From NCBI RefSeq assembly GCF_044324875.1, contig NZ_CP172185.1: a stretch of 64,000 bases of DNA; one strand, 5' to 3'. Position 1 is the first letter of the stretch; the number at the start of each line of letters is the position of its first letter. The notes beneath the pieces are model-generated. The model was not told the origin of the DNA. It saw only the letters and a program-made list of their open reading frames with translations, and did no database searches. Positions 2,998 through 9,447 of this stretch are shown here, piece after piece. Source of the DNA: Escherichia coli. GTDB taxonomy: Bacteria; Pseudomonadota; Gammaproteobacteria; Enterobacterales; Enterobacteriaceae. The position numbers and the translations under genes are program-made.

Positions 2998-4038
2998 TTA
3001 TGGTGCAGGATACGTATAAACCTGATGCACCGCTTCAATTTCAGCTAATACGTCTTCGCTTAACTCCAGATGCAAACTTTCGACGTTAGTTTTCAGCTGC
3101 TCCATCGTGGTTGCGCCCAGCAGAGTGCTGGCAACAAACGGTTGACGGCGTACAAATGCGAGCGCCATCTGAGCAGGGTCCAGGCCATGACGTCTGGCGA
3201 TATCAACATACGCCGCGACGGCTTTTTGCGTTTGCTCACCGCTATAGCGGGTGAAGCGACTAAAGAGCGTATTACGTGCGCCAGCGGGTTTTGCACCATT
3301 GAGATATTTCCCGGTCAGCGTGCCGAAACCCAGGCACGAATAGGCCAGCAGTTCGACTCCTTCATACTGGCTGACTTCTGCCAGACCTACTTCAAAACTG
3401 CGGTTTAACAGACTGTAAGGGTTCTGAATGGTGACAATACGCGGCAGATCGTGTTTGTCCGCCAGATGCAGGTAGCGCATTACGCCAAATGCAGTTTCGT
3501 TCGACACGCCGATATAACGAATTTTTCCCGCGCGTTGGTACTCTGCCAGTGCGTCCAGCGTATCCAGCAGCGAAACCGCAGGCGCAGAATCTGTCCAGCT
3601 ATAACCGAGTTTGCCGAAGCAGTTGGTTGGGCGCTGCGGCCAGTGCACCTGATAAAGATCGAGGTAATCAGTCTGCAGACGCTTGAGGCTGTCATGCAGC
3701 GCTTCGCGGATATTCTTCCGATCCAGCGCCTGATCCGGGCGGATGCCCTTGTCATTATTGCGCGACGGTCCGCTCACTTTGGAGGCGATAATTAACTTTT
3801 CGCGGCTGCCATGTTTCGCCAGCCAGTTGCCGACGTAGGTTTCGGTTAACCCTTGCGTTTCGGGGCGCGGAGGTACTGGGTACATTTCGGCAACGTCGAT
3901 AAGGTTAATGCCCTGAGCGACGGCATAGTCGAGTTGTGCGTGGGCGTCGGCTTCGCTGTTCTGTTCACCAAACGTCATCGTGCCAAGCCCCAGCGTGCTG
4001 ACTTCCAGCGAACTGTGGGGTATACGGTGATATTGCAT
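2998..4038 (-). CDS. tas: NADP(H)-dependent aldo-keto reductase
   Basis: 346-aa ORF; aldo-keto reductase family sequence; conserved neighbourhood. Confidence 0.9.
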   Translation of the reverse strand: MQYHRIPHSSLEVSTLGLGTMTFGEQNSEADAHAQLDYAVAQGINLIDVAEMYPVPPRPETQGLTETYVGNWLAKHGSREKLIIASKVSGPSRNNDKGIRPDQALDRKNIREALHDSLKRLQTDYLDLYQVHWPQRPTNCFGKLGYSWTDSAPAVSLLDTLDALAEYQRAGKIRYIGVSNETAFGVMRYLHLADKHDLPRIVTIQNPYSLLNRSFEVGLAEVSQYEGVELLAYSCLGFGTLTGKYLNGAKPAGARNTLFSRFTRYSGEQTQKAVAAYVDIARRHGLDPAQMALAFVRRQPFVASTLLGATTMEQLKTNVESLHLELSEDVLAEIEAVHQVYTYPAP

Positions 4039-4145
4039 AGCCGTTTCCTTTTTATAATCACGACATAAGGAATATAAAAATGGCAGAGGGAAGGGAAAAG
4101 GGAAAGAGAAAAATCTTAAGGCCAGCCGGATGCTGACCTTATTTG

Positions 4146-4364
4146 TTAACGTTCAATAATTTGCGAAACATCATCACGGTTAATTTGCATCGCGTTACCT
4201 TGCTGATCGTGATAACTCACCAGCCCGGTATCATCATCAATTTCAGGTTTTCCATCGGTCAAAATCATACGGCCATCTTTGGTCGCCATGACGTAATCAC
4301 TGGAACACCCGGAAACAGCAAACGCCAGTCCGACTGCAGAAATTATTACTGCCCATTTTTTCAT
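4146..4364 (-). CDS. ygdR: small lipoprotein, DUF903 family
   Basis: 72-aa ORF with lipoprotein signal peptide and lipobox (LAFAVSG-C); paralog of ygdI in this window. Confidence 0.85.
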
Positions 4365-4501
4365 CCGGTTATCCTCATTTGGCCCACCTATGATAATAGT
4401 CTGTTTATAAACCGACGTTATATATCTTGAAAGCAGGAAAATCTTAAACTGTGAGGGGAACAGGAGTGAGTACGCCCTCCCGCAGGAGAGCGTACGGAGT
4501 A

Positions 4502-5215
4502 TCAGAGCGGGTTCTTTTTGTTGCGAATAAGGTTGAGGCTTTCAACCGCAATAGAGAAGAACATCGCGAAGTAGATGTAACCTTTCGGTACGTGGATGTC
4601 GAAACTTTCCAGAATCAGGGTAAAGCCCACCAGAATCAGGAAAGAGAGCGCCAGCATTTTTACCGAAGGATGGCGTTCGACAAAATCACCAATCGAGCGC
4701 GCGGCAAACATCATCACGCCTACGGCAATCACCACGGCTGCCATCATAATAAACAGGTGATCTGACAGACCCACAGCGGTAATCACCGAGTCGAGGCTGA
4801 AGATAATATCCAGCAGCATAATCTGCACGATAGCGCCGAGGAATGATGAAACGCGTGTTTTCAGCCCTTCTTCTTCACCTTCAATGGATTCGTGGATTTC
4901 CTTGCTGGCTTTCCAGATAAGGAACAAGCCACCCAGAAGCAGAATCAAATCACGGGCGGAAATTTCCTGGCTGAATATTGTAAAAAGCGGATTCGTCAGG
5001 CGCGTAACCCAGGCGATTGATGCCAGCAGCGCCAGACGCATAACCATGGCTCCCGCCAACCCCAGACGCCGCGCATGAGCACGTTGTGCTGTGGGGAGCT
5101 TTGCCACCACCAGAGAAAGGAAAATAATATTGTCGATCCCAAGAACGATCTCCAGCAGCGTCAGCGTACCGAGCGCAAGCCAGGCGTTAGGATCGGTTAT
5201 CCATGCAAATAACAT
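4502..5215 (-). CDS. ygdQ: TerC-family integral membrane protein
   Basis: 237-aa hydrophobic ORF; conserved position between ygdR and mutH. Confidence 0.85.
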
Positions 5216-5283: not shown

Positions 5284-5973
5284 CTACTGGATCAGAAAAT
5301 GACGGGCCAGTAGCGCACTGGTGAAATTCTTCTTCAAATAAAATCCGCGCGGCAGCGTCAGAATCCGTTCGCCCCGGGCACCAATGGCTTCGGTCAGCGC
5401 TTTCGCATTCGCTGCTTTCGGTCGTATCTGTAAATATTCCCCGTGACGAGCGGTAATCCGCTCAACCTGACCGAGAACAATCATATCCATTAATTCTTCC
5501 CAGTCTTCGCGTAGCTGTCGGTCTTCCTCTTCATTCGGGCTCCACAGTAACGGTGATCCTACGCGACGCTGCGCCAGCGGGATGCTGCGCTCGCCTTCAA
5601 CCGGTATCCACAGTACGCGTTTGAGCTTGTGGCGTACGTGGCTGGTTTCCCAGGTCACCCCGCTATTACCCGTTAACGGGGCAACACAAACGAATGTTGT
5701 TTCCAGCGGACGACCAAGACTATCCACAGGGATAGTTTTAAGTTCCACGCCCAGGGCAGCAAAATCTTGCTCAGGTTTACTTCCTGCGCTGGCACCTAGC
5801 CAGATCTCCAGTAACACGCCAATCCAGCCCTTATCGCGTTTTAAATTCTCTGGTGTAACCAGCCCGGCAAGTGCCGCCAGTTCTCCCAATGTATAACCAG
5901 AAAGTTGCTGTGCTTGCGCTAACAACTGTTCTTCAGTTTCGGGAGGAGAGAGCAGTGGGCGAGGTTGGGACAT
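5284..5973 (-). CDS. mutH: DNA mismatch repair endonuclease MutH
   Basis: 229-aa ORF recognised as MutH; conserved neighbourhood. Confidence 0.92.
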
Positions 5974-6149
5974 GTCACGATACCTTGGTTAAAAAACAAA
6001 CAGCAATTATGTGCCGAATATTCGCAGTGTAACTTTTTCCACATGCGTTGTTCAATTCTCTGATTTATATTGCTTTTTAGGCTTCCTGTAATCGAGTTGC
6101 GCAACACTGCAATGGGTTTTCCAAATCTGGTCACTGAAAATAAACAGGA

Positions 6150-6520
6150 TCTTACACCATGTTATCCACAGAAAGCTGGGATAACTGTGAAAAACCTCCA
6201 CTACTGTTTCCATTTACAGCCTTGACGTGCGACGAAACTCCAGTTTTTAGTGGTTCAGTGCTTAACTTAGTGGCACATTCTGTGGATAAATACGGCATTG
6301 GTTGATCTTTCGCCAACCCGTAAATGAGAGGTGTGACCTGGGTCACGAATTACTCTTTTTTATTACTAAAATTACATGTAATGCATTGACTGATAATGAA
6401 TATTTTAAAATGTCTATATCGGGCTTATTCAGAATGCTCCGGGTTTTCCCGTAGTAATTCCGTAGTTCTTCACAACTCTATCCACAGAAAAGGTGAATAA
6501 AAACGGCTATCCACCCATTC
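6150..6520. promoter_or_regulatory. DARS2-like DnaA-reactivating sequence (DnaA-box cluster) plus divergent mutH / rppH-ptsP promoter region
   Basis: Perfect DnaA boxes TTATCCACA at 6162..6170 (+) and 6281..6289 (-), near-consensus cTATCCACA at 6478..6486 and TATCCACC at 6508..6515; DARS2 is described in the mutH-ygdP(rppH) intergenic region. Confidence 0.55.
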
Positions 6521-6657
6521 CTCTGTTTATAACTCTGCACATAACTGTGAGTTATTCAATTGTTATTAGTGTGTAATGCCCTGCAGAGAGTGGTTTACCG
6601 TCTTCCTGGAGTATGAAACAATCATTCGTATATAAAGCTTTATTTTGAGGTAGTCCG

Positions 6658-7188
6658 GTGATTGATGACGATGGCTACCGCCCAAACGTAGGTATCGTGA
6701 TTTGTAATCGCCAGGGGCAGGTAATGTGGGCCCGGCGATTTGGTCAGCACTCCTGGCAATTTCCGCAAGGCGGAATCAACCCCGGAGAATCCGCAGAGCA
6801 GGCGATGTACCGTGAATTGTTTGAAGAAGTAGGATTAAGCCGCAAAGACGTTCGAATCCTTGCTTCAACGCGTAACTGGTTGCGCTACAAATTACCGAAA
6901 CGTTTGGTGCGTTGGGACACGAAGCCGGTTTGTATCGGCCAAAAACAAAAATGGTTTCTCTTGCAGCTGGTGAGCGGCGATGCAGAAATCAATATGCAAA
7001 CCAGCAGTACACCAGAGTTTGACGGCTGGCGATGGGTAAGTTACTGGTATCCGGTCAGACAGGTGGTGTCATTTAAACGTGATGTCTACCGTAGGGTAAT
7101 GAAAGAGTTCGCGAGTGTGGTGATGTCACTGCAGGAAAATACGCCAAAACCACAAAACGCATCTGCTTATCGACGTAAAAGAGGTTAA
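6658..7188 (+). CDS. rppH: RNA pyrophosphohydrolase (Nudix)
   Basis: 176-aa ORF with GTG start; Nudix box ([22 protein letters not shown]). Confidence 0.92.
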
Positions 7189-7200
7189 GTCACGCCAATT

Positions 7201-9447
7201 ATGCTCACTCGCCTGCGCGAAATAGTCGAAAAGGTAGCCAGCGCACCACGCCTGAATGAGGCGTTAAATATTCTGGTTACCGACATCTGTCTTGCGATGG
7301 ATACCGAGGTCTGTTCGGTTTACCTTGCCGATCATGATCGACGTTGTTACTACCTGATGGCGACCCGGGGGCTGAAAAAACCACGCGGTCGCACTGTAAC
7401 GCTCGCGTTTGATGAAGGGATCGTCGGCCTGGTTGGCAGGCTGGCGGAACCGATAAACCTTGCAGATGCGCAAAAGCACCCCAGCTTCAAATACATCCCT
7501 TCCGTAAAAGAAGAACGTTTCCGCGCGTTTTTAGGCGTACCAATTATTCAACGTCGCCAGTTGCTTGGTGTACTGGTGGTACAGCAACGAGAGTTGCGCC
7601 AGTATGACGAAAGTGAAGAATCCTTCCTGGTGACGCTTGCCACTCAGATGGCAGCTATTCTTTCTCAGTCGCAGTTGACTGCCTTGTTTGGACAATATCG
7701 CCAGACGCGAATCCGCGCATTACCGGCAGCGCCTGGTGTGGCGATTGCCGAAGGCTGGCAGGATGCCACGTTACCTTTAATGGAACAGGTGTATCAGGCA
7801 TCAACGCTGGATCCGGCTCTGGAACGCGAACGACTGACCGGGGCGCTGGAAGAAGCGGCAAACGAGTTTCGCCGCTACAGCAAACGCTTTGCCGCCGGTG
7901 CACAAAAAGAAACGGCGGCTATTTTCGATCTTTACTCGCACCTGCTTTCGGACACCCGGCTGCGGCGCGAATTGTTTGCCGAGGTTGATAAAGGCTCGGT
8001 GGCAGAGTGGGCGGTAAAAACGGTCATTGAAAAATTTGCCGAACAGTTTGCCGCGCTAAGCGATAACTATCTCAAAGAGCGGGCTGGCGATTTACGTGCG
8101 CTGGGTCAGCGATTGCTGTTTCATCTTGATGACGCTAATCAAGGGCCGAACGCCTGGCCGGAACGTTTCATTCTGGTGGCAGATGAACTGTCAGCGACAA
8201 CGCTTGCAGAGCTGCCCCAGGATCGCTTAGTCGGTGTTGTCGTGCGAGATGGCGCAGCCAACTCCCATGCTGCGATCATGGTACGTGCGCTGGGGATCCC
8301 TACCGTAATGGGCGCGGACATTCAGCCTTCGGTGCTGCATCGTCGGACGTTGATCGTCGATGGTTATCGCGGTGAATTGCTGGTCGATCCGGAGCCGGTA
8401 CTGCTGCAAGAATATCAGCGGCTAATTAGTGAAGAGATTGAACTTAGCCGTCTGGCGGAAGATGACGTCAATTTACCCGCCCAGTTAAAAAGCGGCGAGC
8501 GCATTAAAGTCATGCTCAATGCCGGTTTAAGCCCGGAACATGAAGAAAAACTGGGCAGCCGTATTGATGGCATAGGACTTTATCGCACTGAAATCCCATT
8601 CATGCTGCAAAGTGGTTTTCCGTCGGAAGAAGAACAGGTGGCGCAGTATCAGGGGATGCTGCAAATGTTCAATGATAAACCCGTCACCTTGCGTACGCTG
8701 GATGTCGGAGCAGATAAGCAGCTGCCTTACATGCCGATCAGCGAAGAGAATCCATGCCTGGGTTGGCGTGGGATTCGCATTACGCTCGATCAGCCGGAGA
8801 TCTTCTTGATCCAGGTGCGGGCGATGCTGCGTGCTAATGCCGCTACGGGCAACCTGAATATTCTGTTGCCGATGGTCACCAGCCTCGATGAAGTTGACGA
8901 AGCACGCCGCCTGATTGAACGTGCCGGACGTGAAGTCGAGGAGATGATCGGTTACGAAATTCCCAAACCACGTATCGGCATCATGCTTGAAGTGCCGTCA
9001 ATGGTATTTATGCTGCCGCATCTGGCAAAGCGGGTCGATTTTATCTCTGTTGGCACCAACGATCTGACTCAATACATCCTGGCCGTTGATCGCAACAATA
9101 CCCGGGTGGCGAACATTTATGACAGTCTTCATCCTGCAATGTTACGAGCTCTGGCGATGATCGCTCGGGAAGCGGAAATACATGGTATCGATCTCCGTTT
9201 GTGCGGTGAAATGGCGGGCGATCCCATGTGCGTGGCAATCCTCATTGGGCTTGGGTATCGTCATCTGTCTATGAACGGACGTTCTGTAGCGCGCGTAAAA
9301 TACCTGCTGCGGCGCATTGATTATGCCGAAGCAGAAAATCTTGCGCAGCGTAGTCTGGAAGCGCAACTGGCGACCGAAGTTCGCCATCAGGTTGCAGCCT
9401 TTATGGAGCGTCGCGGCATGGGCGGGTTGATTCGCGGAGGGTTATAG
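7201..9447 (+). CDS. ptsP: phosphoenolpyruvate-protein phosphotransferase EI-Ntr (GAF + PEP-utilising domains)
   Basis: 748-aa ORF immediately downstream of rppH; enzyme-I family sequence. Confidence 0.93.
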   Translation: MLTRLREIVEKVASAPRLNEALNILVTDICLAMDTEVCSVYLADHDRRCYYLMATRGLKKPRGRTVTLAFDEGIVGLVGRLAEPINLADAQKHPSFKYIPSVKEERFRAFLGVPIIQRRQLLGVLVVQQRELRQYDESEESFLVTLATQMAAILSQSQLTALFGQYRQTRIRALPAAPGVAIAEGWQDATLPLMEQVYQASTLDPALERERLTGALEEAANEFRRYSKRFAAGAQKETAAIFDLYSHLLSDTRLRRELFAEVDKGSVAEWAVKTVIEKFAEQFAALSDNYLKERAGDLRALGQRLLFHLDDANQGPNAWPERFILVADELSATTLAELPQDRLVGVVVRDGAANSHAAIMVRALGIPTVMGADIQPSVLHRRTLIVDGYRGELLVDPEPVLLQEYQRLISEEIELSRLAEDDVNLPAQLKSGERIKVMLNAGLSPEHEEKLGSRIDGIGLYRTEIPFMLQSGFPSEEEQVAQYQGMLQMFNDKPVTLRTLDVGADKQLPYMPISEENPCLGWRGIRITLDQPEIFLIQVRAMLRANAATGNLNILLPMVTSLDEVDEARRLIERAGREVEEMIGYEIPKPRIGIMLEVPSMVFMLPHLAKRVDFISVGTNDLTQYILAVDRNNTRVANIYDSLHPAMLRALAMIAREAEIHGIDLRLCGEMAGDPMCVAILIGLGYRHLSMNGRSVARVKYLLRRIDYAEAENLAQRSLEAQLATEVRHQVAAFMERRGMGGLIRGGL

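Follow-up and report, generated by a model that had tools for sequence, protein, structure and literature searches.

The 684-bp spacer between mutH and rppH (5974-6657), delimited by open reading frames and RefSeq annotation in a 64-kb window of Escherichia coli DNA (the window being the whole stretch of 64,000 nucleotides that was analysed), raises the question of what its cluster of DnaA boxes represents. The gene order is mutH, spacer, rppH, ptsP. In the RefSeq records of a K-12 derivative and of the MG1655 reference, the small gene ygdT is the only feature inside the spacer and a DARS2 feature is absent. A permissive Rfam scan of 5800-6800 matched zero RNA families, so nothing points to a small RNA here. 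Of 5426 complete E. coli genomes, 5424 contain the spacer, with an identity of 95-100%; one of these strains matches it at 100%, and K-12 at 98.8%. We conclude that it almost certainly holds DARS2, which is E. coli's second DnaA-reactivating sequence, as the initial annotation had proposed. This is an already known element, which that annotation rediscovered. The observations made on this copy concern its sequence identity, its geometry, its genomic context and its conservation. As to context, the position between mutH and rppH, in the promoter region of mutH, is the one at which a review places DARS2 (PMC5835720).

The element lends itself to direct mapping by way of the primers and oligonucleotides from the Katayama and Løbner-Olesen laboratories. 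DARS2 has reportedly been dissected since 2009. We drew on Table S1 of Kasho 2014, Table S2 of Miyoshi 2021 and the primers that Frimodt-Møller 2015 used for deletions, most of which match the window exactly, the others being positioned via the alignment to K-12; every described DARS2 element could thus be placed on the spacer (Table 1). Published drawings follow the minus strand of the window, with the core at the left. The first 13 nucleotides of primer MutH-2 match exactly at 6069-6081 and MutH-4 corresponds to 6505-6523 with one SNP, so that the span between the two is 455 bp, equal to the published length.

Table 1. Window coordinates of the features of the mutH-rppH spacer and its neighbours, with the evidence that places them
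Feature	Position	Strand	Basis or remark
mutH	5284-5973	-	ORF
SNPs relative to K-12	5978, 5988, 6082, 6084, 6087, 6113, 6361, 6517		Alignment
Full-length experimental DARS2, 455 bp	6069-6523	-	MutH-2, MutH-4
FBS6, non-essential Fis site	6099-6113	-	FIS-4U, FIS-4L
Minus-strand ORF, 64 aa	6152-6346	-	Named in the initial annotation
ygdT (b4610), 48 aa	6159-6305	+	RefSeq-annotated; overlaps boxes VI and V
DnaA box VI, perfect TTATCCACA	6162-6170	+	Ksh-34/Ksh-35 flank; right half of DARS2
FBS2-5 fragment	6268-6319		FBS2-5-f oligonucleotide, exact match
DnaA box V, perfect TTATCCACA	6281-6289	-	Ksh-32/Ksh-33 flank; inside FBS2-5 fragment
Essential 21-mer with FBS2-3, TACGGCATTGGTTGATCTTTC	6291-6311	-	MutH-11, MutH-17, MutH-24/25
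FBS1 region, non-essential Fis site	6333-6363		FIS-1U, FIS-1L; Fis consensus at 6341-6355
ISVsa5 insertion of NZ_CP084026.1	about 6377-6393		Locus L123 of that genome, about 3404-4758
IBS1, IHF site, TAATGCATTGACT	6379-6391	+	traIL-L1/traIR-U1 translocated unit
IBS2, IHF site, TAAAATATTCATT	6395-6407	-	traIL-L1/traIR-U1 translocated unit
DnaA box IV, accessory, TTATTCAGA, 1 mismatch	6425-6433	+	Ksh-30/Ksh-31 flank
DARS2 core, 35 bp	6466-6500	-	Core-deletion primers MutH-14 and MutH-15 flank exactly
Core box III, TTCTTCACA	6466-6474	+
Core box II, CTATCCACA, 1 mismatch	6478-6486	+
Core box I, TTATTCACC	6492-6500	-	Window plus strand reads GGTGAATAA
Fourth box of the initial annotation, CTATCCACC, 2 mismatches	6507-6515	+	Outside the core deletion
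DnaA-box-like 9-mer without published name, TTATAAACA, 1 mismatch	6524-6532	-
Blocks AGTGGTTTACCG, GTATGAAACAATCA, TTTACC, 17 bp, TG-n-AACAAT	6590-6625	+	Upstream of rppH
rppH (ygdP/nudH)	6658-7188	+	ORF
ptsP	7201-9447	+	ORF

Aligned with K-12 MG1655, the spacer displays eight substitutions and no insertions or deletions, which together with the mapped primers bears out its assignment to DARS2. The initial annotation had staked its reading on alignment to the DARS2 core; the core aligns, and all eight SNPs lie outside the essential elements. Six of them (6082, 6084, 6087, 6113, 6361 and 6517) fall within the 455-bp fragment, leaving core boxes I-III, boxes IV-VI, IBS1-2 and FBS2-5 unchanged. 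The SNP at 6113 (G to A on the published strand) abolishes the first consensus G of FBS6 relative to K-12, and is the position altered in the published subFBS6 mutant.

The catalytic core reads, on the plus strand, TTCTTCACA (box III), ACT, CTATCCACA (box II), GAAAA, GGTGAATAA (box I), with gaps of 3 and 5 bp. Boxes I and II are thus opposed and 5 bp apart while box III stands in tandem with box II, and box II carries the single mismatch expected of DARS2, being perfect in DARS1 (PMC6868365). An independent deletion of boxes I-III (Frimodt-Møller 2015) takes out 6467-6502. This 9-5-9-3-9 layout occurs once in the 64-kb window and in none of 200 randomised 64-kb sequences; the core was found in 18 of 18 species compared, and 23 of its 27 box positions are invariant among the 11 Enterobacterales. 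The head-to-head pair that releases ADP is box II (6478-6486) and box I (6492-6500), 5 bp apart. This corrects the emphasis of the initial annotation on the two perfect opposed boxes: they lie exactly where it put them (6162-6170 on the plus strand and 6281-6289 on the minus strand) and are the only exact copies of TTATCCACA in the window, yet they are accessory boxes VI and V. It had rightly picked out CTATCCACA, one mismatch from consensus, at 6478-6486, and overlooked core boxes I and III and accessory box IV. Its remaining near-consensus box, at 6508-6515, does exist as the 9-mer CTATCCACC beginning one base earlier, and is not a described DARS2 element; across the Enterobacterales it has no invariant position (mean majority fraction 0.44), it is not conserved beyond Escherichia, and it is probably non-functional.

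A second arrangement with the geometry and orientation of the core surrounds box VI at 6150-6184, where TCTTACACC, 3 bp, TTATCCACA, 5 bp and CTGGGATAA follow one another. It shares 23 of 35 positions with the true core, and among about 128,000 35-mers in the window only two others agree with the core as well as this. The sequence GGGTTTTCC precedes both (6114-6122 and 6441-6449), and the flanks AACAGGATCTTACACC and TGGGATAAC of the arrangement are invariant or nearly so in Enterobacterales and absent in Vibrionales. We rejected it as a second catalytic core, its outer boxes having two and three mismatches and being conserved only within the Enterobacterales.

Only two sites within one mismatch of the IHF consensus TAANNNNTTGATW are present in the spacer, and these are the published IBS1 and IBS2, which lie 3 bp apart in a unit (6379-6407) with the same sequence as the unit translocated with traIL-L1/traIR-U1. 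This unit has been described as about equidistant between the core and the Fis sites (PMC11724364), and here 96 bp separate its centre from the core and 92 bp separate it from FBS2-3. K-12 has an identical copy of the essential 21-mer (6291-6311), within which GATCTTT (6304-6310) is retained in nearly all 18 species. The exact match of the FBS2-5 oligonucleotide (6268-6319) takes in a perfect box V, and the weak boxes flanking it overlap Fis sites. In the FBS1 region the one SNP relative to K-12 (6361) falls outside the 15-mer. Overlapping FBS1 is a palindrome, TGTGACCTGGGTCACG (6332-6347), one mismatch from the CRP core TGTGA-N6-TCACA, whose half-sites are retained in Citrobacter, Enterobacter and Mangrovibacter with a variable centre. 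Matches resembling terminators coincided with the palindromes of the core and FBS1 and were rejected as terminators.

In the complete E. coli genome NZ_CP084026.1, that of a laboratory conjugation derivative, an IS4-like element, ISVsa5, is inserted in DARS2 at IBS1 and puts about 1.3 kb between the core and the Fis sites. This insertion should inactivate IHF- and Fis-dependent activation in that strain.

We extracted 17 complete mutH-rppH spacers and compared 18 species, seven of them Vibrionales. The 11 Enterobacterales show little or no variation in the core boxes and box VI and none in box V, unlike in IBS1-2, FBS1, box IV, FBS6 and the box at 6507-6515; outside Escherichia, Citrobacter and Enterobacter the conservation of box IV is poor. 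Box VI has the perfect consensus in all 18 species, from Enterobacterales to Vibrionales, and box V is present in all 18 and perfect in 16, with one substitution in each of Aliivibrio and Grimontia. Box VI lies 118-120 bp from box V, which in turn is separated from the core by 185-194 bp. Exactly +57 from where the core starts, here at 6524-6532, all 18 species likewise have a 9-mer resembling a box, which is perfect in two Vibrio; it lies one base beyond the published 455-bp fragment, a published tet marker was inserted adjacent to it, and from its sequence it would be a DnaA-binding box. There is more variation in how far the boxes stand from the starts of the genes (63-209 bp for mutH and 187-205 bp for rppH), so that boxes VI, V and +57, which hold their distance to the core, appear to be positioned relative to the core and not to the promoters.

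The conservation of boxes V and VI exceeds that of the essential IHF and Fis sites, although in the plasmid assay these two boxes are dispensable: they belong to a part of DARS2 not required for stimulating initiation from a plasmid, and substitution of box IV, V or VI failed to abolish this activity (PMC4245941). A role in negative feedback has been described for box V (Miyoshi 2021, PMC8682772). The IHF and Fis sites drift in sequence beyond the closest genera and the regulatory details may therefore be lineage-specific, the essential sites of the present copy being the same as in K-12.

Scanning the core-layout pattern over one genome per species returned at least 120 loci, compared to roughly 0.5 expected by chance (an estimate from the specificity of the pattern and the size of the collection). 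Among the matches listed, mutH or rppH is a neighbour at 26 loci, uvrB or bioD at 22 and priA at 25, and no neighbour was identified at 47. At the priA-linked loci among the matches listed (L003, L005, L009, L011, L018, L021, L022, L025, L026, L044 and 15 others), the triple box resembling a DARS core is upstream of priA, as a rule by 50-200 bp (by 518 bp in two loci and by 1075 bp in one), and its box I end always faces priA. The hosts are Xanthomonas, Pseudoxanthomonas, Stenotrophomonas, Rugamonas, Chitinibacter, Thiothrix and many metagenome-assembled genomes of Beta- and Gammaproteobacteria. In our literature search no description of DARS-like sites near priA was found. The priA-upstream core, and boxes V, VI and +57 with their spacing fixed from E. 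coli to Vibrio, may be new observations. It is possible, though we are inclined to doubt it, that the conserved DARS2 unit is both larger than the minimal element and different from it, with boxes VI, V and +57 serving a chromosomal role that plasmid assays missed (for example as a higher-order DnaA scaffold or loop), and that the priA-upstream cores are the DARS counterpart where a mutH-linked site is absent.

The conservation of boxes with no need in the plasmid assay also bears on the strongest alternative, namely that the cluster is chiefly a sink titrating DnaA, or a DnaA operator for mutH or for rppH-ptsP, with nucleotide exchange secondary. Before DARS sites were recognised, the mutH promoter region was counted as one of five high-affinity DnaA-binding loci, according to the review cited above (Roth and Messer 1998, cited in PMC5835720), and boxes V and VI, perfect and the most conserved, are the very ones unneeded for exchange activity on plasmids. 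In relatives, moreover, a DnaA-box-like 9-mer lies over the putative -10 element of rppH. However, the spacing of boxes VI, V and +57 to the core and not to the gene starts looks like DARS2 architecture, and nucleotide exchange has been directly shown by published genetics and biochemistry. We therefore consider this explanation unlikely as it stands, a sink or operator function being more plausible as an additional role of DARS2 than as its replacement.

The putative rppH promoter referred to here comprises the two blocks at 6590-6625, AGTGGTTTACCG and GTATGAAACAATCA, which are invariant in the 11 Enterobacterales; they likely form the promoter of rppH, judging by their resemblance to the consensus, and were not called by a simple promoter scan. 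That scan returned for the spacer one weak promoter-like site facing mutH, no more than in shuffled sequences. The 9-mer overlapping the putative -10 in relatives is TGTTTCACA (TTTTCCACA or TTTTTCACA in Vibrionales), and E. coli has the weaker TGTTTCATA at 6612-6620.

It is far less probable that the conservation of 6159-6305 is due to a small-protein gene, ygdT, with the DnaA boxes incidental. The gene is annotated by RefSeq in K-12 and in all E. coli genomes listed, and among the species compared E. coli, E. albertii and one Citrobacter have an intact reading frame, but only these: stop codons or loss of the ATG are found in Citrobacter werkmanii, both Enterobacter, Mangrovibacter, Serratia and Yersinia, and a 1-nt indel disrupts the frame in Yersinia and Acerihabitans. 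Codon positions 1, 2 and 3 account for 22, 19 and 13 variable columns, respectively, so that the third position varies least, the opposite of what coding selection produces, and the conserved stretches coincide with DNA motifs, namely box VI, ATTTACAGCCTTGACG and box V. We found no functional literature on ygdT, two apparent mentions in bacteria being misspellings of ydgT (cnu). The annotated gene is thus probably an artefact lying over DARS2. The minus-strand frame at 6152-6346, which the initial annotation had considered probably not a gene, is not one: stop codons interrupt it in most other genera compared, and its variable columns (28, 29 and 21 by codon position) lack an excess at the third position. 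The motif ATTTACAGCCTTGACG (6211-6227) is nearly invariant in the 11 Enterobacterales and contains TTGACG, a possible -35 element, with no conserved -10.

About 0.005 exact copies of TTATCCACA would be expected in 684 bp from base composition, and the 455-bp span contains eight sites within one mismatch of TTWTNCACA compared to 0.69 expected (Poisson P about 7e-7); nowhere else in the window are 455-bp stretches as dense in such sites as in DARS2. Over the whole 64-kb window, 19 sites lie within one mismatch of TTATCCACA compared to 11.2 expected, a number reached in 2 of 100 shuffles. The initial annotation also listed a repeat, ATAACTGTGA, which is indeed present at 6181-6190 and 6541-6550 and is not a described element of DARS2; exact direct 10-mer repeats occur in 27% of random 684-mers of matched composition, which places it within chance, and we rejected it on this ground and since it is not conserved as a unit, nor beyond Escherichia. 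That the whole cluster is a chance pile-up of DnaA-box-like words in an AT-rich spacer, a reading favoured by the mild enrichment across the window and the chance level of this repeat, has a negligible probability and is already refuted by the local density, the absence of the core layout from every randomisation, conservation across two bacterial orders and the match to an experimentally defined element.

Taking the element as DARS2, its mode of action can be set out from work on K-12, for which nucleotide exchange (IHF- and Fis-dependent release of ADP, with an increase of ATP-DnaA in vivo) rests on direct evidence (PMC4245941). The unchanged essential elements lead us to expect similar activity from this strain's copy, and ADP release that would likewise depend on IHF and Fis. 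ADP-DnaA would occupy the three core boxes at 6466-6500, where the protomers on boxes I and II would make head-to-head contact via the AAA+ residue Gln208, leading to release of ADP, while the protomer on box III would steady the pair head-to-tail through Leu290 (PMC6868365); the apo-DnaA set free could then bind ATP. Unlike DARS1, the core would be weak alone and would depend on IHF bound to IBS1-2 and on Fis bound to FBS2-3 (PMC4245941). Binding of IHF, which requires negative supercoiling, would bend the DNA at 6379-6407 and bring Fis to the DnaA on the core, activating it; the residue proposed to touch the DnaA dimer over the resulting loop is Gln68 of Fis (PMC11724364). Once ATP-DnaA is abundant, an oligomer extending from box V (6281-6289) over the Fis sites would evict Fis and so turn the element off (PMC8682772). 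The relative distance of DARS2 from oriC, which lies outside the window, is conserved on the chromosome (PMC4585315). According to one recent paper, however, cells in which the extrinsic regulators of DnaA, DARS2 included, have all been deleted can have surprisingly normal cell cycles (PMC11331064), and on that account the physiological weight of DARS2 is debated.

As a discovery, the DARS2 described here adds nothing. It is nevertheless one of the few non-coding sites that time E. coli chromosome replication, and its recognition therefore matters for annotation. What the analysis yields of use is the coordinate map of published elements, the correction of the catalytic pair and the evidence that ygdT is probably mis-annotated, and the leads from conservation (box VI, the +57 box and the priA-upstream sites) could guide experiments on DARS biology.

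Among known systems the closest is DARS2 of K-12 MG1655 (NC_000913.3, about 2,969,112-2,969,566), with the same locus, flanking genes and spacings; this strain differs by the eight SNPs given above, of which the one at 6113 weakens the non-essential FBS6. DARS1, in the bioD-uvrB spacer, shares the chemistry of ADP release and has the same core layout (box I, 5 bp, inverted box II, 3 bp, box III), reading TTATCCACT-ATTCC-TGTGGATAA-CCA-TGTGTATTA where DARS2 reads TTATTCACC-TTTTC-TGTGGATAG-AGT-TGTGAAGAA. However, DARS1 lies at another locus, is only 101 bp long, has a perfect box II as opposed to the single mismatch in DARS2, and works without IHF or Fis, whereas the weak activity that DARS2 has by itself rises about 10-fold once both are bound. 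We rejected DARS1 as the identity of the present element, which is flanked by mutH and rppH, K-12 DARS1 differing in both sequence and locus. The datA locus likewise consists of clustered DnaA boxes and an IHF site in non-coding DNA, with binding of IHF that is timed in the cell cycle, but it does the opposite job, promoting hydrolysis of ATP on DnaA; it lies near glyVXY-queG, close to oriC, and its boxes suit oligomers of ATP-DnaA, whereas boxes I and II of DARS2 form a head-to-head pair. The DnaA-oligomerisation region of oriC also combines 9-mer DnaA boxes of graded affinity with an IHF site, but its boxes stand head-to-tail next to an AT-rich unwinding element.
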